A DNA stretch of 64,000 nucleotides from an uncultured archaeon (GTDB taxonomy: Archaea; Asgardarchaeota; Lokiarchaeia; Sigyniarchaeales; SOKP01), in NCBI GenBank assembly GCA_964486045.1, contig CAZALK010000006.1:1-64000 (forward strand). Reading direction: 5' to 3'. The notes below the pieces were generated by a model. It searched no databases and was not told the DNA's origin. It saw only the letters and a program-made list of their open reading frames with translations. Positions 2,492 to 18,041 of this stretch are shown piece after piece (position 1 is the stretch's first letter; every line of letters begins with the position of its first letter). The position numbers were made by a program, and so were the translations under genes.

Positions 2492-2865
2492 TATTCTAAT
2501 AATTTTTTGTCTAAGATGATTATAGTATAATATTATTGATAATTTATACCTATTTTGCCTTAATAACTGAAAAATATGATTAATAATATAAAAATAAAAT
2601 GTTTGTCTTGCAAGATACTTAGTTTATAATAATTAGAGAATTACTAATAGATTAATAACCGATCTTACTAATTTAAATTCCCAAACCCTATATGAATCTT
2701 AAGATTTGAAAGAATTAAATTTTTAGTTTATAATAAGATATAGTGATGAAGTATATTGTTTAATCTTTCACCTAGATTAGATTGACTATTATGATAATAA
2801 TGTTACTAATCCTTACAGGCAGTATATCCTTTAAAATTGGATTATAAATTTGAAGATTGTAAGAA

Positions 2866-3174
2866 GTGAAAAAAAATAGATTAATGAAAAAGTTAAAATT
2901 AAGTAGATTAGGAGAGAAACGAAATCAACAGGAAATATCTTTAAAAAAACCTATTTATAGTGATTTAAAGTTTTATTTCTTTATTTCAGCCGTTATAAGC
3001 ATTTCTTTAGGATTTTGGTTCCTTATTTCTGTAAAGATATCTGATTCTATTAATTATAGCATAGTGACAAATCTTCTAGGATGGTCATTTGGATTTTTCA
3101 CTCTTTCAATCTCAATTTATGCTTTGATTTTAAAATTTACAAGGAGCACGACTTTAAGTAATTATATCCAATAG
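2866..3174 (+). CDS. Small membrane protein, probably decayed at the 3' end
   Basis: Two hydrophobic helices; a further in-frame hydrophobic segment (ISVANFLLLLGGVIILLIT) follows several stops, to ~3330. Confidence 0.45.
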   Translation: MKKNRLMKKLKLSRLGEKRNQQEISLKKPIYSDLKFYFFISAVISISLGFWFLISVKISDSINYSIVTNLLGWSFGFFTLSISIYALILKFTRSTTLSNYIQ

Positions 3175-3339
3175 TAAGTGAATAGCTAACAGCGTCAAGG
3201 TTGATTTAAACTAAAGAGTCTTGATCCAGCGGATGAGAGAGAAAAACTTCTAAAATTAATTCGGAGAATTTCTGTAGCTAATTTTTTGTTATTATTAGGC
3301 GGGGTGATTATTCTTTTGATAACCTGTTGTTAGCAATTT

Positions 3340-3567
3340 CTATTTTTTAAGATTAAGAAATTCCTCACGAGTCATATCGATATCTTTCAATATTTTTGAT
3401 AATAAACCTCTTCCTATTTTTTCTCCTTTATGATAAGGAATTACAGTTGTACGCCCCTGTGAATCACGAAAAAATTTATGAGAACCCTTTTGCCTTATCT
3501 CTTTAAATCCTTGCGCTTTAAGAATTTTAATTAATTTATCAGGAGGCAACGGATTAAGTTTCTTCAA
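3340..3567 (-). CDS. hicA: HicA family mRNA interferase toxin
   Basis: LKAQGFKEIRQKGSHKFF...TTVIPYH.GEKIGRGLLSKILKD. Confidence 0.93.
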   Translation of the reverse strand: MKKLNPLPPDKLIKILKAQGFKEIRQKGSHKFFRDSQGRTTVIPYHKGEKIGRGLLSKILKDIDMTREEFLNLKK

Positions 3568-3781
3568 AGGAAACCTCTACTTTTTGAAATCCTATAAATT
3601 TAATAGCCTTGCCTAATCGCTCTTTATCTACTTCAAGGTATAATTCTATGGCTTCAATTACTCTTTTATTTAATTCGTCTAAGGATTTTGCTTGTGTATG
3701 ACAACCGGGTAATTCAGGAACGCTGGCAATATAATAATCATCTTCATCCTGTTCTATAACTATATTAAATTCTTTTTTCAT
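3554..3781 (-). CDS. hicB: HicB family antitoxin (short form, no DNA-binding domain)
   Basis: FNIVIEQDEDDYYIASVPELPGCHTQAKSLDEL; overlaps hicA by 14 bp. Confidence 0.93.
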   Translation of the reverse strand: MKKEFNIVIEQDEDDYYIASVPELPGCHTQAKSLDELNKRVIEAIELYLEVDKERLGKAIKFIGFQKVEVSFEET

Positions 3782-3921
3782 TAGGTTCCCTATAATTTAA
3801 TTTCAAAACTTAAAATTCATATATCTTAATCATCTAGTAGTAATCTAACTTAATATTTTTATTTGTTAATTCAATTTATGTAAATAAGCGTTACTCGTGA
3901 GTGAAATTTTTAATAAGGAAA

Positions 3922-4019
3922 ATCATACTTTTGATAATTTGATTGTAATGGGTACATTTTTATTTTTTGGTTTGTTATTAAAACAATAGTTTATTTAAAT
4001 AAACGTTGACTTTAACCAA
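3922..4019 (+). repeat. 98-bp direct repeat, copy 1
   Basis: 96/98 identical to 7568-7665; contains the 16-bp palindrome GTTTATTTAAATAAAC (3989-4004). Confidence 0.95.
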
Positions 4020-5525: not shown

Positions 5526-6308
5526 GTGATCTAATCATCTATTATAATTTTTATGGGTGATTCTATCTCCGTCTTTTAGTGAATAAGATTAAGATAATAA
5601 TTAGTTTTTTGAAAATTAGTTTACATTGGGGTTATATTTTAAAAATTCATAATCCAATTATTTTAATAACCACTTATGTGCTATTTGTTGAAGAAAATTT
5701 AAAACTCAATATTAAAAGCAAATCTAGAAGCTTAAGAAGATATTAGAGGTAGTACCGAATATTTTCCTCGTTATGGGAATACAATTTTTGCAGAAAAGAG
5801 AAATATGATGAATAAATATTATAGGCGAAATCCAAAGGGAGGGGAAGTAGGATATCAATATCCTAATTGCTCAGATATACAAGGAAATTGAATAGGACAA
5901 GTATCTATGACATTTTTTTTTTCAGTTTTTTCTATTTCAAATCACCTATTTTGGTTTAATTATATTTGGTTCAATTTTTTTTAAAGAGGGTTTGGAGTCT
6001 AATTTTTAGATTTATCAAAGTCAACGGATGTTTAATGTGATGTAAATATTTAGTTATAAAAATGGAATATAGATAGGAATAGCATTAATAAAAAATAGAT
6101 GCTAAATTGTGGATTATTGGAAATTATTAAAATGTTCTTTATTCATAGAAAGATAATATTAATAATTAAATAATTCAATAAATCAATTTAAATACTTAGT
6201 TGAATATTTTTAAATTAAAGAGTACATTAATCGAGTTAAGGATTGAATTAACCGACTAAAAATAAAATAATTAAATAATAAAATAATCAACGAAAAAATA
6301 GAATCCCT

Positions 6309-7091
6309 ATGGACATTAAAAATTTAGAAGCAAGTCTTGTGAAGGCAGAAGAATATCTTATTATTGTAAGAAAGATTGAAAATCGGGAAAGTACAAACGC
6401 AGAATAAGAATACATTCAAGCAAATGCCAATAGAATACAAAAAGATGTGATGAAATTGGGGCATGGAATTATTTATTATAGAAGACCATGGGGTATAGAA
6501 ATATTTCAGAATTATCAAATTATTGCTAATTTTCCAATTATGTTAATGACCCGTGGATTAAAAGATGAAGCTAAGGGGTTAATACCTACCGTAAAACAAA
6601 CATTATTGGCATACATACAAGAAGTTAAGGAATTAATAGAAAATCCTAAAGATCTAAATAAGAGTATAATTACAATTGATTTCTTTGAGATAATTAAAGA
6701 TATTAAGAAGAATTTTAGAAAAATTGTAAAAAGTGATCCTGAAAGTGAAAAAGATGTTCAAAACTATTTAGAAACTTTCTTGGATGTTAAAGGATACAAT
6801 TTTTTAAGAGAAAAAGAAAATATTGAATTTTCAGAAAAAACATTCTTTCCTGATTTTACTCAAAAGAAATTAAATATAGCAATAGAGGTAAAATTTCTAG
6901 ATAAAAAAGGTAAAGCTAGCCAAATAATTGAAGAGATGTCTGCTGATATAAATCCATATTCTAAAAAATGGAAGAATATATTATTTTTAGTTTATGATAA
7001 GGGAGGAAATATTAGAGATGTTGATTCTTTTATAATAGATTTTAACAAAAATGGGGATGCAATATTAAGATGTATAGTTATAAAACATTAA
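6309..7091 (+). pseudogene. PD-(D/E)XK nuclease (DpnII/MboI-like REase domain) with a premature TAA at 6405-6407
   Basis: ATG 6309 is in frame with track ORF 6447-7091 across a single TAA; EKDVQNYL...PDF...AIEVK...EEMSADI..Y...LFLVYD. Confidence 0.7.
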
Positions 7092-7129
7092 CATAAAGAT
7101 AATTTAAATAAAAATGATACGGTGTTATT

Positions 7130-7462
7130 ATGTTGGATAAAAATCAAATTAATCTGATAGTAAAAGAGTTAATAAAAAATAACTACGTTTCAATTGGTAA
7201 ATACAGTGATCTTTTTGGAATGATAGAACAAATGGCTATTAAATTGAATTATATTGAATCAAGTAATTCTGATAGAATGGAATCTGGAATAGACTTAGAA
7301 GATGATGATTTTTTAAAAGTACAAGATGAGATCTGGAAGCTTGTCTTAGAAGGAAAAGTAGCACCTGGGAAAAATAAGATGAACCATTGGTTTCCAAATC
7401 TTCATTTTACTGAGAAGGGTAAAAAATTTAGGGAAGAATTAATTCAAGATGAGGATAAATAA
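7130..7462 (+). CDS. Hypothetical protein, winged-helix-like
   Basis: EIWKLVLEGKVAPG...HFTEKGK resembles a wHTH wing. Confidence 0.55.
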   Translation: MLDKNQINLIVKELIKNNYVSIGKYSDLFGMIEQMAIKLNYIESSNSDRMESGIDLEDDDFLKVQDEIWKLVLEGKVAPGKNKMNHWFPNLHFTEKGKKFREELIQDEDK

Positions 7463-12443: not shown

Positions 12444-13232
12444 TTATTTAAATTGTTCCAACAGTTCTTGATGTTCTTTCATATGTTTCTTTCTATTTTT
12501 TTCACTTAACCCATTAATATATTTCATATTTACTCTGTAATCTGAGAATCTCCCTTCTGGGGGTTCTTTCAACCACTTTTCTTTGGGATGTCTTAATCCA
12601 AAATATAGAAATATTAAAAAAAACAAAATTAGACTATAAAGACTACTTCTTGAGTACCTAGTAGATAAATCAGGTGAAAAATATAACTCCAAAATATGGA
12701 AAATGATAATTATAAGAACTGAAATCACTGCATAATTTCCAATTTTAGCCATTTTGGTTTGACGGTATCTAGCATCCCAATATCTCCCGTGATACCCATC
12801 TGTTTTATCACAATATTTATTAATAAATCGAGAGTACCTTTTTCTTCTAAAAGGATTTTTTCCCCACATAATTCCATCCCCACTTGCTATTGTGTCAATT
12901 ATAAAATGACCACAGTAAATCCCTACTACTGAAATCAAAAAGTAAAGAGGAAAAAAATTGAGTATGACACTTATTACAAAAAGGATGATAACTGGGGAAA
13001 AAATGAGTGGAAAATGCGTTAGGGAATTCAAGTGATGTTGGTATTCCATGGTGAGCTTTAATCTCCCTTTGCTCTTAATAAAATAATATATTGCATCGAA
13101 ATCAGGAAGTAATGAGAAGTAAACTATCGCGTTGAAATAATAACTTGGGATAATAAGCGATCTGGTCCAAATTATATATATTAGATAATAAAAAAGAATA
13201 CCAAATGCACTATGATGCTCGAGTCGACTCAT
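12444..13232 (-). CDS. Membrane-bound metal-dependent hydrolase (YdjM-like)
   Basis: HHSAFG, LLPDFD, HH..SLTH, GHFIID plus TM helices. Confidence 0.8.
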   Translation of the reverse strand: MSRLEHHSAFGILFYYLIYIIWTRSLIIPSYYFNAIVYFSLLPDFDAIYYFIKSKGRLKLTMEYQHHLNSLTHFPLIFSPVIILFVISVILNFFPLYFLISVVGIYCGHFIIDTIASGDGIMWGKNPFRRKRYSRFINKYCDKTDGYHGRYWDARYRQTKMAKIGNYAVISVLIIIIFHILELYFSPDLSTRYSRSSLYSLILFFLIFLYFGLRHPKEKWLKEPPEGRFSDYRVNMKYINGLSEKNRKKHMKEHQELLEQFK

Positions 13233-13433
13233 TTCATAATCCTAATTAATATCAAAGCATTCCATCAAACATGATAAGGATTATTTATAATGGATTAAAA
13301 AAATTATTGTTATAAAGAATAATCCTTGACTAACTAAAAAAAAGGAAATTTATACTAAGGATCCAAAAATAATAAAAACTACTGTTATACATAGATTTAA
13401 AAATAGAAAATCAAATTATTAATAGATAACCTC

Positions 13434-13826
13434 TTGGTTAAAGTCGTACAAGATTTTTGGATAATAACTCAAGCTGGAAAAGTTCTGTATAAGCGAGTTT
13501 TTAATGTAAAAATGCATGCTCAATTATTTGGAGCTCTTTTAAGTGCTTTAACTTCATTTTCGAAGGAAATTACAAGTTCAGGTCTCACTAATTTTCAATC
13601 AAGTTCATATAAATTTACGATATTAAAAAAAGAACAGTTTGATTTTGTCGCAACATCTAATAGTAGTGATAAAGTAAAAAAAGTTCAAGGTGATTTAAAA
13701 AAGATTTCAATAAAATTTTTTAAGAAATATGCTAACATTTTAGCCAATTGGGATAATTGGAATCAAAATACAGATGATTTTTCTGATTTTGAGGAAATTA
13801 TTAAAGATTATTTGAAAGATCTTTAA
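13434..13826 (+). CDS. Stand-alone longin-domain protein
   Basis: WIITQAGKVLY...QLFGALLSALTSFSKEI...FFKKY...FSDFEEII, a sedlin/sybindin-like longin pattern. Confidence 0.75.
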   Translation: MVKVVQDFWIITQAGKVLYKRVFNVKMHAQLFGALLSALTSFSKEITSSGLTNFQSSSYKFTILKKEQFDFVATSNSSDKVKKVQGDLKKISIKFFKKYANILANWDNWNQNTDDFSDFEEIIKDYLKDL

Positions 13827-13949
13827 AAATTTTTGAGAAGATTTGTAAAAAACTTCTTTTTTCAATTTTCGGAAAAATAGTATATAAATTTATCAACCCT
13901 ATTACCACTTCAAAAAAGAGAATTATCACAAAATTAGGGAATAATAGAT

Positions 13950-14471
13950 TTGGGTTCTTTTGTATTCAAAATTATCTTATGTGGAGATTATGGAGTCGGT
14001 AAATCTACATCAATTCATAGGTTTGTAGAAAATAAATTCAAAGCAAATTATGTCCCCACCTTGGGAGTTCAAGTAACAAAAAAATCTCTTGAGATTAATG
14101 GGAATAGTGTAGATTTGATGATATGGGATCTTGCTGGACAAGATAGATATGCTATGGTTCGACAAAGATTTTACACCGGTGCCGAAGGAATTCTCATGTT
14201 GTATGATGTTACGCGAATGTCTTCACTAAAAAACATTAAAAAGTGGCACAATGAGGTGTCTAGGTTTGTTAAACAAATTCCTATCATATTAATTGGTAAT
14301 AAAATTGATTTAATAGAAAAAAAAGAAGTAATGAATGCTGATGTCAAGAGATTTTTGGAAGAAAATAACATCAATGTAAAATTAAAAATCAAAACTTCAG
14401 CTAAAGATGGAGTGAATACAGAACAAGCGTTTATTTCTTTAATAAAATTATTAATATATAAGAATGGTTAA
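13950..14471 (+). CDS. Ras-superfamily small GTPase, Rab-like
   Basis: G1 GDYGVGKST, G2 YVPTLG, G3 WDLAGQ, G4 NKID, G5 TSAK; no C-terminal Cys. Confidence 0.96.
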   Translation: MGSFVFKIILCGDYGVGKSTSIHRFVENKFKANYVPTLGVQVTKKSLEINGNSVDLMIWDLAGQDRYAMVRQRFYTGAEGILMLYDVTRMSSLKNIKKWHNEVSRFVKQIPIILIGNKIDLIEKKEVMNADVKRFLEENNINVKLKIKTSAKDGVNTEQAFISLIKLLIYKNG

Positions 14472-14567
14472 GGAAGGGATGCTTGTTATAGCCATAATGT
14501 GTAAGTTAAAATAACCTAAATCGAATTTTCATAATATTTTATAATAATATAACTGGATGAGGCAAAA

Positions 14568-15653
14568 TTGAAAAAGCCCTATTTTTTTTATGTCATAGAT
14601 TCTTCAGGAATATGTTTATTTTCTTATAATTTTAAAAAAAATATTGAAATGTTTCAAAAAGACCTCTTTAGTGGTTTTATAACTGCCATTTCTCTTTTTT
14701 CTTCAGAATTAAATGAAAAACTGGGTTATACTGATGAATTTGGACGACTTCCAGCAATTCCTCTAAATTTACTCTTTGAAATTATGATTTCATATATCAA
14801 TCCAGTAATTGGGGTTCTTGTTGTCGAAAAAAAAGACATTGATAAAGATATGAAAGCTTTTCTAAATGATACTTTAAAGATATTTTTATTAAAATTTAAT
14901 AACAGATTAGAAAATTGGGACGGCGAGATTGAATCATTTCGATCGTTTAAGGAGGATATCGAAAAAATTTTTAAGAAAATGGAATTATTTTCGTTTCAAA
15001 TTCCAAAAATGAGAGATATTTCTGTAAGTAATAATATTTTGAATGAAAATTATTTAACTGTTATCAAAGAAATTGATGGGAAGAAGAGTATTAAAGAAAT
15101 TTCACAAAAATTGAGTAAATCCCTGGACGAGATAAAAACTATGATTTCAAGCTTATTATGGAGTGAATTAATAACTTTAAGTGAAAAAGTTTATGAAGAT
15201 GATATTTTTGAACCGAAAAAAGATTTATTCTATTTAATAAGAACCAAAAATTTAGAACCTGAAATGGTAGAATTAGAGCTACCAAAAGAAAAATTAATAG
15301 AACATAAATTATTAGGGGCGATAGATGGGTTCAAAACAGTCTATAACCTCTCAGTGGAATTTCCAAATTTATCAATTTATGAAATTAAACGTTTTCTCTC
15401 ATTATATCTCTCAAAAGGGTCATATATCGAAAAGGTAGAGTTATTTCCTCAAATTATAAACATTGATGATGAATTATTAGGGGAATTGACAACGGAAGAT
15501 CTTGTAGTATCTTATTCCTTAGAGAATATTTGTGATGGTGAACTATCACTAGAAGATTTATCAATAAAAATTGGTTTTTCTATTAGGGATATAAAAAAAA
15601 TACTTGATCTCCTTGGAAAACATGTTTTTTATAAGAAAAAATATGTAAAATAA
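14568..15653 (+). CDS. Longin plus tandem winged-helix protein (NPRL2-like architecture)
   Basis: N-terminal longin (VIDSSGICLF...DLFSGFITAISLFSSEL); three repeats IDGKKSIKEIS / IDGFKTVYNLS / CDGELSLEDLS. Confidence 0.7.
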   Translation: MKKPYFFYVIDSSGICLFSYNFKKNIEMFQKDLFSGFITAISLFSSELNEKLGYTDEFGRLPAIPLNLLFEIMISYINPVIGVLVVEKKDIDKDMKAFLNDTLKIFLLKFNNRLENWDGEIESFRSFKEDIEKIFKKMELFSFQIPKMRDISVSNNILNENYLTVIKEIDGKKSIKEISQKLSKSLDEIKTMISSLLWSELITLSEKVYEDDIFEPKKDLFYLIRTKNLEPEMVELELPKEKLIEHKLLGAIDGFKTVYNLSVEFPNLSIYEIKRFLSLYLSKGSYIEKVELFPQIINIDDELLGELTTEDLVVSYSLENICDGELSLEDLSIKIGFSIRDIKKILDLLGKHVFYKKKYVK

Positions 15654-15849: not shown

Positions 15850-16464
15850 TTATCTTTCATTCCAATGTACAAAGATCTGGAATTTAAATGCCTTTCCTTT
15901 ATATTCCCCATCGCTTATAGCGGAAAGTTTAAAACCGTTGTGCTCATGCCAATAAACAGAGGCTTTATTAAATAATGGCTTTTCTACGATAAAAGCGACA
16001 ATTGGGGTTGTAATCTTTAATAAAGCTTCCTGATACATGGTAGTGCCAACTCCCTTACGCTTATATTCTGGCAAAACACTCACTTGGTCTAAGTAAGCAA
16101 ATTCTGTTTTTTCGTTAATAAGTAAATGGTTTGTTTTTTTGTCCTCGAAAGAGAGATTACCAATGACATCGCGAACCTTAACTATCTTGTACTTATTTCT
16201 ATGAATACTTATAAACCCCATAATTTTGCCCGTTTTATTTTTGGCAATATAAATGTCGATACCAAGATCTTCGATTAACTCCTTGTAATAATCGATATCA
16301 ACTTCTTTTCGTAGAAATCCTTCTTCTTCTAATTTTTTTCTTTGTTTTTGAGGGATTTCATCAACATCTCTTATTTCTATTAAATTTTGCTGAAGAGCAT
16401 TAAGAATCCCTTCAGCATCATCAATACTAGCAATTTTGATATTAATTGTGGATTCCGAAGTCAT
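15850..16464 (-). CDS. GNAT family N-acetyltransferase
   Basis: YLDQVSVLPEYKRKGVGT, N.ASVYWHEHNGF. Confidence 0.9.
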   Translation of the reverse strand: MTSESTINIKIASIDDAEGILNALQQNLIEIRDVDEIPQKQRKKLEEEGFLRKEVDIDYYKELIEDLGIDIYIAKNKTGKIMGFISIHRNKYKIVKVRDVIGNLSFEDKKTNHLLINEKTEFAYLDQVSVLPEYKRKGVGTTMYQEALLKITTPIVAFIVEKPLFNKASVYWHEHNGFKLSAISDGEYKGKAFKFQIFVHWNER

Positions 16465-16646: not shown

Positions 16647-18041
16647 ATGACATATTCAACATCAGAAGAAGAATATACATTTAAAGTAACGCTTGTATTC
16701 TGGAAATTTTATGAATTAGGTCTTTATTTTGAGCTCCCAGAAGTACGCAAATTTCTTGAAAAAGAAGGAACGTTAAAATTATACAAAGATTATCGATTTA
16801 AAATTACACAAGAAGATGGTACTAAAGTAGATCAACCGTTAAAATGGATTTCAAGTCAATCTCATAAATATGCTCCAGTGTGTTTCAAAATTGCGGAATC
16901 GGATAGATTTTCTTGCGTTACAGATCCACATATAGTAGGGAAAATTAGGTTAGAAGGGCATATTCATTATGGATCGGTACTGGTGATTCATTGTGAGTTA
17001 ATATTTGACAATTATCATAAAATTGAAGATTTTATTGAAATTTCTCAACCATCTAATATGATTCTTCAGAGTACAAGTAGACCTATAACTGAAAAATTTA
17101 TAGAGATTAGAGATAATGTTATAACCCTGTTGAAAAAAGCAAATTATCCTGACAAATCAAAATTAGAGTCGTCATTAGAGCCATGGCACCACACTTGGAT
17201 TATTTGGGATGCTAAACCAGATTTTATTAGAGCTGATTATAGATTTGTTGGAGAAGAAATTGGTAAAAATGCGCAGTATTCAATTGGATTAACCTTAAGA
17301 ACAGATAAGTATCATGTCTTAGATCCAGTGGCGTATAGGGATCAAATTAACCTTAAAAACCTCTCTCCTTATATTGACGAATTTGTTATGATAACTCATG
17401 CGGGAAATGTGGTTATTCCTGGACCAGGTCTTCTCGATCCTCATACAATGAAAAATTTCTTAATTGATACTCTATTTGGACCTGAAGTTGGAAATGTCCA
17501 AAGATTTTTGATTTTAATGCATATGGAGAATATTTTAGTTGTAGCTGAAAAATTTGATAGGATTATCTCAGAAACTAGGGCACTGGAAGAAGAATTAACC
17601 TTAAATGACAAAATAGATAGACTGGAACAATTAGAGACTGAACTTAATAGAATTATACTTGAATTAAATAAAGATGTAATAATTTCTAAAATAACCCGGC
17701 TTCTCTTTACAAGCACATTTAAAACAAGCATGTTTAATGAGCAAATAGATAAATTAGATGGCTTTACATTTTCAAAAGCAACTGATGATGTAATCGCGAG
17801 AATTAGGAAAACACTAAATAGACAGAGAAATACTCTTAATACTAAATCTGCTGCTATAGAAAATAAATTTCTAGCAATCCTTAATTACTTAGCTGTGTTT
17901 GAAATCGCGATTTTGATAATTTCATTAGCGCTAGGTGATTTATTTGAAGGAACTCTGGTAGGAATTGTTCAGATAGTGATTGCCGTCTTTGTTGTAATTT
18001 TCGCATTCGTTGTTTATCGAATGCAAGAAAAAAGATTGTAG
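16647..18041 (+). CDS. Hypothetical membrane protein with CorA-like topology
   Basis: Soluble domain, long helices, then two C-terminal TM segments; no GMN motif. Confidence 0.6.
   Translation: MTYSTSEEEYTFKVTLVFWKFYELGLYFELPEVRKFLEKEGTLKLYKDYRFKITQEDGTKVDQPLKWISSQSHKYAPVCFKIAESDRFSCVTDPHIVGKIRLEGHIHYGSVLVIHCELIFDNYHKIEDFIEISQPSNMILQSTSRPITEKFIEIRDNVITLLKKANYPDKSKLESSLEPWHHTWIIWDAKPDFIRADYRFVGEEIGKNAQYSIGLTLRTDKYHVLDPVAYRDQINLKNLSPYIDEFVMITHAGNVVIPGPGLLDPHTMKNFLIDTLFGPEVGNVQRFLILMHMENILVVAEKFDRIISETRALEEELTLNDKIDRLEQLETELNRIILELNKDVIISKITRLLFTSTFKTSMFNEQIDKLDGFTFSKATDDVIARIRKTLNRQRNTLNTKSAAIENKFLAILNYLAVFEIAILIISLALGDLFEGTLVGIVQIVIAVFVVIFAFVVYRMQEKRL

Follow-up and report, generated by a model that had tools for sequence, protein, structure and literature searches.

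A Rab-like GTPase and an NPRL2/NPRL3-like protein encoded side by side in a Lokiarchaeia genome: a candidate small-GTPase switch cassette

The three genes and their folds

The window analyzed here is a stretch of 64,000 nucleotides, contig 6 (CAZALK010000006.1, positions 1 to 64,000) of the genome of an uncultured archaeon of the Lokiarchaeia (Asgardarchaeota; GenBank assembly GCA_964486045.1)—a low-GC genome of 5.18 Mb that is 99% complete. It bears three co-oriented genes: a small stand-alone longin (gene 1), a Rab-like small GTPase (gene 2), and a longin–winged-helix protein related to NPRL2 and NPRL3 (gene 3). A sequence-only reading of the window had proposed this trio as a minimal GATOR1- or Mon1–Ccz1-like switch. 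Its open reading frames (ORFs) lie exactly at the positions it gave (Table 1) and its observation is confirmed; its interpretation is supported in part, namely for the GTPase and the NPRL2-like protein, but not for a GATOR1 or for the trio as a unit.

Gene 3 is a true but remote homolog of NPRL2/NPRL3. A search of the PDB with its single sequence gives nothing useful—weak matches to winged helix-turn-helix (wHTH) proteins (HTH_47)—and NPRL2 is reached only by family profiles. The first of these, profile A1, is an alignment of 23 homologs that are 48-84% identical to the gene 3 protein and shows a highly conserved family; it matches human NPRL2 (6CES chain N) with an E value of 2.6e-4, placing positions 143-302 onto residues 172-338 of NPRL2. 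In this alignment, the pattern IDGKK..ISQ..LLW..ITL...IFEP runs gap-free along IDGFRHIQKIS...LLYYGVVTL...VYCP of NPRL2, and the NPRL2 segment that the sequence-only reading had named is real. The broader profile A2, which comprises 34 archaeal longin-plus-winged-helix proteins, matches human NPRL2 (6ces_N) with an E value of 9.6e-12 and yeast Npr2 with 9.3e-6, while ordinary DNA-binding wHTH proteins follow at 1e-4 or worse.

The AlphaFold2 model of gene 3 (pLDDT 85.7, pTM 0.74) leads to the same family. In a Foldseek search, chains of NPRL2, NPRL3, or Npr2 from GATOR1/SEAC structures take all of the first 13 ranks (E 4e-11 to 4.5e-6), and these matches span essentially the full length of the protein; their TM scores are low, which we attribute to differing orientations of the domains. 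Residues 1-140 adopt a longin fold with a VIA-align Z score of 15.0 to Trs23 (127 aligned residues, root-mean-square deviation 2.5), followed by Fuzzy (13.6), Sec22b (13.5), and MglB (12.8). The remainder, residues 141-361, is modeled as three winged-helix units of the order helix–helix–helix–strand. These are homologous repeats—as had been noticed from the letters—with hhalign E values of 1.6e-6 for unit 1 against unit 2, 2.2e-7 for unit 1 against unit 3, and 2.8e-3 for unit 2 against unit 3. This C-terminal part is acidic, with a net charge of -7 and an isoelectric point (pI) of 5.1. With profile and structure comparisons both positive, the earlier assignment of the third protein as NPRL2-like stands.

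Pfam places the protein less clearly. Gene 3 gives no match to NPR2 (PF06218) or NPR3 (PF03666) at E≤1, and among its 23 close homologs one matches NPR2 (E 1.4e-7) and six match HTH_NPRL3 weakly. Gene 3 bears the N-terminal longin and the homologous C-terminal winged-helix domain that mark the NPRL2/NPRL3 family, and stays below the Pfam NPR2/NPR3 cut-off. A deep profile search of a representative library yields 512 matches at E≤1e-3, whose 34 longest-matching sequences fall mostly into wHTH families of Pfam, with one match to NPR2, two to HTH_NPRL3, and one to DUF742; no eukaryotic NPRL2-looking protein is among these 34. The DUF742 matches within the gene 3 family are weak, with E 0.11 in 3 of the 23 sequences of A1 and 9.7e-5 in 1 of the 34 of A2. 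DUF742 is CvnC of the Streptomyces conservon, which also encodes a Roadblock protein (CvnB) and a Ras-like GTPase (CvnD). The matches are too weak to claim a link, which was dropped; the conservon is a possible deeper prokaryotic parallel of the gene 3 family.

Gene 2 is Rab-like and not Rag-like, in agreement with the sequence-only reading. Its Pfam match to Ras (E 9e-47, 159 bits) far exceeds that to Gtr1_RagA (2e-8, 34 bits), and its best 60 matches in the PDB are all Rabs, among them Rab14 (E 9e-38), Rab1B (2e-37), and a Thorarchaeota Rab (7ezb, 1e-32). The motifs are complete—G1 GDYGVGKS, the switch I threonine, G3 DLAGQ, G4 NKID, and G5 SAK—so that by its motifs the protein is catalytically complete and holds the canonical catalytic glutamine. 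At 173 residues, it has no C-terminal roadblock domain, and it carries no C-terminal cysteine prenylation motif: it ends in ...LLIYKNG, and none of 22 partner GTPases (see below) has a cysteine in its last eight residues. Its pI is 9.7.

Gene 1 (pI 9.4) is closest to the first longin domain (LD1) of Mon1. It matches Pfam Fuz_longin_1 with 28.2 bits (cut-off 26.1), the best PDB matches of its family profile (A3) are all first longin domains of Mon1 (E 1.3e-5), and its AlphaFold2 model (pLDDT 79.6) has a longin topology with MON1A as top Foldseek match. Aligned to the gene 3 longin family by hhalign, the gene 1 family reaches a probability of 97.8% and an E value of 9.4e-13 over 119 columns; by this profile comparison, the two longins are evidently paralogs, and both proteins flanking the GTPase do carry related longin domains, as had been read from the sequence. 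Members of the gene 1 family occur widely and in several copies: 152 of the 161 genomes of the class have them, and the host genome has 4.

All three genes start with TTG in the window. For gene 1, the start is ATG in 12 of 13 homologous loci. For gene 2, the TTG at 13950-13952, read as (M)G[ST]FVFK, is kept in 27 of 32 homologous loci (L056-L099), and the partner GTPase gene offers no in-frame ATG ahead of the P-loop. Such starts may point to a deliberately low or regulated translation.

A conserved GTPase/NPRL2-like gene pair

Copies of the NPRL2-like gene were gathered from species-representative genomes and from marine-sediment metagenome contigs; 26 distinct ones come with 650 nt or more of DNA upstream. 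In 24 of these, the gene immediately upstream, on the same strand, encodes a Ras-family GTPase, at gaps of -11 to 117 nt with one exception of 677 nt; of the two remaining copies, one has a 90-residue Ras remnant upstream and the other stands second in a tandem pair. The small longin lies directly upstream of the pair in 10 of the 18 distinct copies whose upstream DNA is long enough, and all 10 belong to the sub-clade closest to the window. The conserved unit is the pair of GTPase and NPRL2-like gene and not the trio. The synteny survey that the sequence-only reading had called for thus favors the pair, but not the complete three-part module in which that reading had seen the possible novelty.

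The partner GTPases are moreover a group of their own. In a tree of 22 partner GTPases and the 47 small GTPases of the host genome that score E<1e-20—71 small-GTPase-like ORFs were found there—20 of the 22 partners fall into one clade (support 0.886), with none of the 47 inside. Gene 2 matches its best paralog in its own genome at E 1e-39, vs 1e-52 to 1e-96 for the partners in other genomes. The pair also duplicates as a unit: one metagenome-assembled genome (MAG) holds tandem copies, and the Helarchaeota MAG LW55_61 holds three dispersed pairs. The order GTPase–NPRL2-like–GTPase–NPRL2-like is found at L058/L038 (G229 contig 103) and likewise at L074 and L075, the tandem copies being 82% (NPRL2-like) and 79% (GTPase) identical. 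Because the synteny is strongly conserved, the genes co-duplicate, and the GTPases form a dedicated clade, a regulator/GTPase relationship for the pair is well founded on genomic grounds.

Some copies depart from this layout. In LW55_61, a 315-residue Roadblock/LC7–Ras fusion (L037:5039-5986, G128 contig 5) lies directly upstream of one NPRL2-like paralog—a "Rosetta stone" tying a roadblock protomer to the partner-GTPase clade; in the tree, the GTPase domain of this fusion does not fall within the main partner clade. Another pair in the same MAG is directly preceded by a 299-residue leucine-rich-repeat protein (L036:4410-5309), an arrangement beside a Ras/Roc-like GTPase that is reminiscent of ROCO proteins. 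The most divergent copy of the Loki class (L039, G123) has two GTPase-like genes downstream (2638-3168 and 3187-3999) and none upstream; the first of these (176 residues) has no recognizable G1, G3, and G4 motifs and may be a pseudo-GTPase.

Distant relatives of gene 3, 288-424 residues long, are found elsewhere in the phylum, in three further lineages of family level. The commonest taxon of related clusters in an Atlas search is Thorarchaeota, which suggests that these relatives are at least partly thorarchaeal. The sampled relatives from these three lineages have no adjoining GTPase. Those of 424 residues, probably thorarchaeal by the Atlas taxa, have a 140-residue Roadblock/LC7 gene directly upstream (L045:5551-5973 with 5998-7272, G086; likewise L042), and a prolyl-tRNA synthetase (ProRS) and a TrmI methyltransferase gene farther upstream. 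A second longin/roadblock protomer hence recurs in varied form: as the Mon1-like longin (10 of 18 copies), as the Roadblock–GTPase fusion of one Helarchaeota copy, and as the Roadblock gene of the 424-residue relatives. Elsewhere in the host genome, the NPRL2-like longin has at least 16 more matches (e.g., G000:C1:4042-4413, C20:39924-40361, C11:134149-134544, C1:983152-983577). Several of these sit within large ORFs of 748, 751, 859, and 1447 residues, which agrees with the fusions between NPRL2-like longins and signaling domains described in the preprint text of Liu et al.

In the window, the trio stands by itself as a co-oriented unit, since genes on the opposite strand bound it on both sides—a divergent one upstream and a convergent one downstream (Table 1). 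The intergenic gaps measure 123 nt between genes 1 and 2 and 96 nt between genes 2 and 3. Just beyond the convergent acetyltransferase gene, a plus-strand gene (16647-18041) encodes a 464-residue protein with a weak DUF2207_C match (E 3.8e-4) and an apparently hydrophobic C-terminal end that is probably membrane-spanning.

Table 1. Features of the locus, with positions in the window
Feature	Position	Strand	Basis
Divergent upstream neighbor, YdjM-like membrane protein	12444-13232	-	
Divergent intergenic region, AT-rich, putative promoter region	13233-13433	.	Sequence and upstream minus-strand gene
Gene 1, 130-residue stand-alone longin, Mon1/Fuz LD1-like	13434-13826	+	Pfam, family profile, AlphaFold2, Foldseek
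Gene 2, 173-residue Rab-like small GTPase	13950-14471	+	Pfam Ras, PDB matches, G motifs
Gene 3, 361-residue NPRL2/NPRL3-like protein: longin and three winged-helix units	14568-15653	+	Profiles, AlphaFold2, Foldseek
Gene 3 longin domain, residues 1-140	14568-14987	+	VIA-align
Gene 3 winged-helix unit 1, residues about 159-226 (IDGKKSIKEIS...)	15042-15245	+	AlphaFold2 secondary structure, repeat test, alignment to NPRL2 IDGFRHIQKIS region
Gene 3 winged-helix unit 2, residues about 240-300 (IDGFKTVYNLS...)	15285-15467	+	AlphaFold2, repeat test, alignment to NPRL2 residues about 280-331
Gene 3 winged-helix unit 3, residues about 301-361 (CDGELSLEDLS...)	15468-15650	+	Pfam HTH_47 match, AlphaFold2, repeat test
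Convergent downstream neighbor, GNAT acetyltransferase	15850-16464	-	

Possible functions of the pair

Folds, homology, and co-inheritance are demonstrated above. Taken together, the locus is probably a small-GTPase switch cassette, in which a Rab-like GTPase is encoded with its own co-inherited longin-platform regulator of the NPRL2/NPRL3 type and—in this lineage—with a Mon1-LD1-like longin upstream. Hereby, the longin of gene 3 would pair with that of gene 1 or, where gene 1 is missing, with itself or with another roadblock/longin protomer. The resulting two-protomer platform would dock onto the GTPase at its switch regions and set its nucleotide state, and the acidic tail of three winged helices would provide a scaffold for protein–protein contacts, as in NPRL2/NPRL3, and would not bind DNA.

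The kind of catalysis that such a platform could perform is narrowed by its residues. Longins of the GTPase-activating protein (GAP) type—NPRL2, FLCN, and SMCR8/C9orf72—are marked by a GP motif at the β1–β2 loop or the start of β2 and by an arginine finger (PMC12290439). In gene 3, the invariant G14 is followed by I/V/L/A/T, with a cysteine where distant relatives have proline, and no arginine within residues 1-140 is conserved at ≥90% in the A1 alignment; in gene 1, G15 is followed by K/I/N/Y/V. Because both the GP motif and a conserved arginine are missing, an arginine-finger GAP of the GATOR1/FLCN type is unlikely, and GATOR1-type catalysis was ruled out as a candidate on the same two grounds. 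The β4–β5 turn of gene 3 consists of two residues (PV). Gene 1 offers a near-invariant R21 as well as an invariant K65 at its β4–β5 hairpin, which is probably the topological position of R78 of NPRL2; the two residues may be equivalent to this arginine. A guanine nucleotide exchange factor (GEF) similar to Mon1–Ccz1 or TRAPP, or a finger-less GAP similar to MglB that uses the catalytic glutamine of the GTPase itself, are the live options.

Several points weigh against a switch cassette. The small longin, missing from 8 of the 18 copies—whose upstream gene is unrelated and encodes a methyltransferase, a phosphoesterase, or a leucine-rich-repeat protein—is the weakest link of the module, and none of its paralogs elsewhere adjoins a GTPase in the 17 loci inspected. 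The full-length gene 3 family is patchy, with 6 of the 161 genomes of the class and 4 of the 54 species of the genus-level group of the window. The spacers between the genes are AT-rich and a T-run lies 3' of gene 1, which weakens the case for a single transcript. With neither a GP motif nor a conserved arginine, a known catalytic mechanism is not assignable. The pairwise divergences of gene 2 and gene 3 do correlate (Mantel r 0.94), as would be expected for any vertically co-inherited neighbors, which makes this value supportive and not decisive. Finally, a physical complex and a regulatory activity are what we infer, the binding from genomic context.

Some of these points would equally suit an effector or scaffold, where the GTP-bound Rab-like GTPase recruits the NPRL2-like protein and the three winged helices assemble other proteins while the nucleotide state is left unchanged. 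The lack of a catalytic GP/Arg signature (as defined in PMC12290439) would be natural for such a protein—in the eukaryotic complexes, the GP motif is likewise missing from the non-catalytic partners NPRL3 and FNIP (PMC12290439)—and conserved synteny fits any obligate partner, not regulators alone. However, the structurally characterized longin/roadblock dimers on small GTPases, namely GATOR1, FLCN–FNIP, Mon1–Ccz1, TRAPP, and MglB, act as GEFs or GAPs (PMC10933270), and the second longin/roadblock protomer that recurs at the locus is typical of catalytic platforms. We regard an effector role as rather unlikely.

It is quite improbable that the protein is a transcription factor, whose three winged-helix units would bind DNA and whose longin—together with the GTPase—would provide a sensory input to gene expression. 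The C-terminal Pfam matches are indeed wHTH families (HTH_47, and weak TrmB/MarR-type matches in relatives), and NPRL2-like longins fused to two-component signaling domains are described in the text of the preprint by Liu et al. Yet the C-terminal part is net acidic, and its best specific relatives are the C-terminal domains of NPRL2/Npr2 at 9.6e-12, vs 1e-4 or worse for DNA-binding wHTH proteins. These C-terminal domains are protein–protein modules in GATOR1 and are not known to bind DNA.

As for the components of a GATOR1, the host genome gives no Pfam NPR2 or NPR3 match above cut-off, and its best match to the Pfam IML1 model, which represents DEPDC5/Iml1, has an E value of 0.016 and 15.3 bits, under the cut-off of 26.2 bits; below cut-off, this model also matches 4 of 14 control genomes. 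The genome has one full-length NPRL2-like copy, whose partner candidate is a bare longin of 130 residues and not a full-length NPRL3. Neither DEPDC5/Iml1, nor two full-length paralogous subunits, nor a Rag/Gtr substrate is found, and a GATOR1 identity was rejected on the missing DEPDC5, the missing full NPRL3, the single full-length copy, and the Rab-like GTPase in place of a Rag. Hence, despite a fold and sequence homology to NPRL2/NPRL3 over the whole length, a true minimal GATOR1—an NPRL2-type arginine-finger GAP acting on a Rag-like GTPase in nutrient signaling—is hardly credible for a Rab-like neighbor, a single copy in a 99% complete genome, and a G14 followed by I/V/L and not by proline.

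Small GTPases number in the dozens in Asgard genomes, as do longin/roadblock proteins, and the matching of regulators to GTPases is a standing problem. In the cultured strain MK-D1, GTPase genes as a rule do not share operons with roadblock or longin genes (Tran et al., PMC10933270), and an operon analysis of Loki GTPases has been listed as an outstanding question (Dey et al., PMC4917890). The switch cassette proposed here would offer a matched and co-inherited set of a Rab-like GTPase, an NPRL2-type protein, and—in this lineage—a Mon1-type longin, which is small, soluble, expressible, and assayable. If the regulation holds true, this would be the first pair of GTPase and regulator to be defined in Asgard archaea, and it would bear on the descent of the eukaryotic longin GAP/GEF complexes from such modules. 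One might speculate further, tentatively and with some doubt, that longin–winged-helix proteins of the NPRL2/NPRL3 type had their origin in Asgard archaea, as operon-encoded regulators of Rab-like GTPases. The cassette would then preserve, in living and minimal form, the ancestor of the GATOR1/FLCN/CSW longin complexes, with a finger-free longin heterodimer and a catalytic mechanism—GEF, or finger-less or lysine-assisted GAP—that has not been seen in the eukaryotic descendants.

Comparison with known systems

NPRL2/NPRL3 (Npr2/Npr3; GATOR1/SEACIT; PDB 6CES, 7T3A-C, 8FW5, 8ADL, 9O5A) share the architecture of gene 3 at a similar size (361 vs 380 residues). The sequence similarity is significant in the C-terminal part, and the best whole-chain structural matches are all theirs. 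Unlike these proteins, gene 3 pairs with a Rab-like GTPase and is encoded beside it in a prokaryotic cassette; it is without the GP motif, the conserved arginine, DEPDC5, and a full-length paralogous partner, and it scores below the Pfam NPR2 cut-off.

Within Asgard archaea, the sequence-only reading had pointed to earlier reports of NPRL2-like proteins, and rightly so. The preprint of Liu et al. (bioRxiv 10.1101/2020.10.19.343400) describes in its text an NPRL2-like family with a longin and an NPRL2-specific C-terminal domain in most Thor and a few Loki MAGs, as well as fusions of NPRL2-like longins to two-component signaling domains. Gene 3 very probably belongs to this family, whose distribution as given there matches the patchy one found here. 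The family as such is hence already published. A literature search, which covered this preprint by its text, found no report of an NPRL2-like gene paired with a dedicated Rab-like GTPase or with a Mon1-like longin.

The tri-longin Rab GEFs Mon1–Ccz1, Fuzzy–Inturned, and BLOC-3 (HPS1–HPS4) are the closest relatives on the side of gene 1, which is of LD1 type and nearest to the LD1 of Mon1 in sequence and fold. Their catalytic core is an LD1–LD1 heterodimer acting on a Rab. Unlike these GEFs, genes 1 and 3 have a single longin per protein and not three, for which reason an identity with them was rejected.

MglA/MglB and the prokaryotic Roadblock–GTPase operons likewise encode a GTPase together with a regulator of roadblock/longin fold. 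MglB works without an arginine finger, and its fold is a strong match to the gene 3 longin (Z 12.8). Unlike in MglA/MglB, gene 2 is Rab-like with a canonical catalytic glutamine, and gene 3 bears a winged-helix tail of the NPRL2 type.

A Roadblock (LAMTOR1-like)/Rab-like GTPase/DENN operon of Asgard archaea, as described in the text of Liu et al., follows the same logic and gene order: a small protein belonging to the roadblock superfamily, then a Rab-like GTPase, and a larger putative regulator of the longin family. Here, gene 3 has three winged helices in place of the DENN domain, for which the host genome gives no Pfam match at E≤0.1; and that operon is described as conserved across most Asgard archaea, whereas the present cassette is patchy. 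With no DENN domain and a different distribution, the two were not considered identical.

What these systems have in common is the longin/roadblock dimer as a docking platform for GTPases, as known from GATOR1, FLCN–FNIP, C9orf72–SMCR8, Mon1–Ccz1, TRAPP, and MglB (PMC10933270, PMC12290439). To this, the locus described here would add as its new element a longin-platform GTPase module that combines a Rab-like GTPase with a protein of the NPRL2 type.

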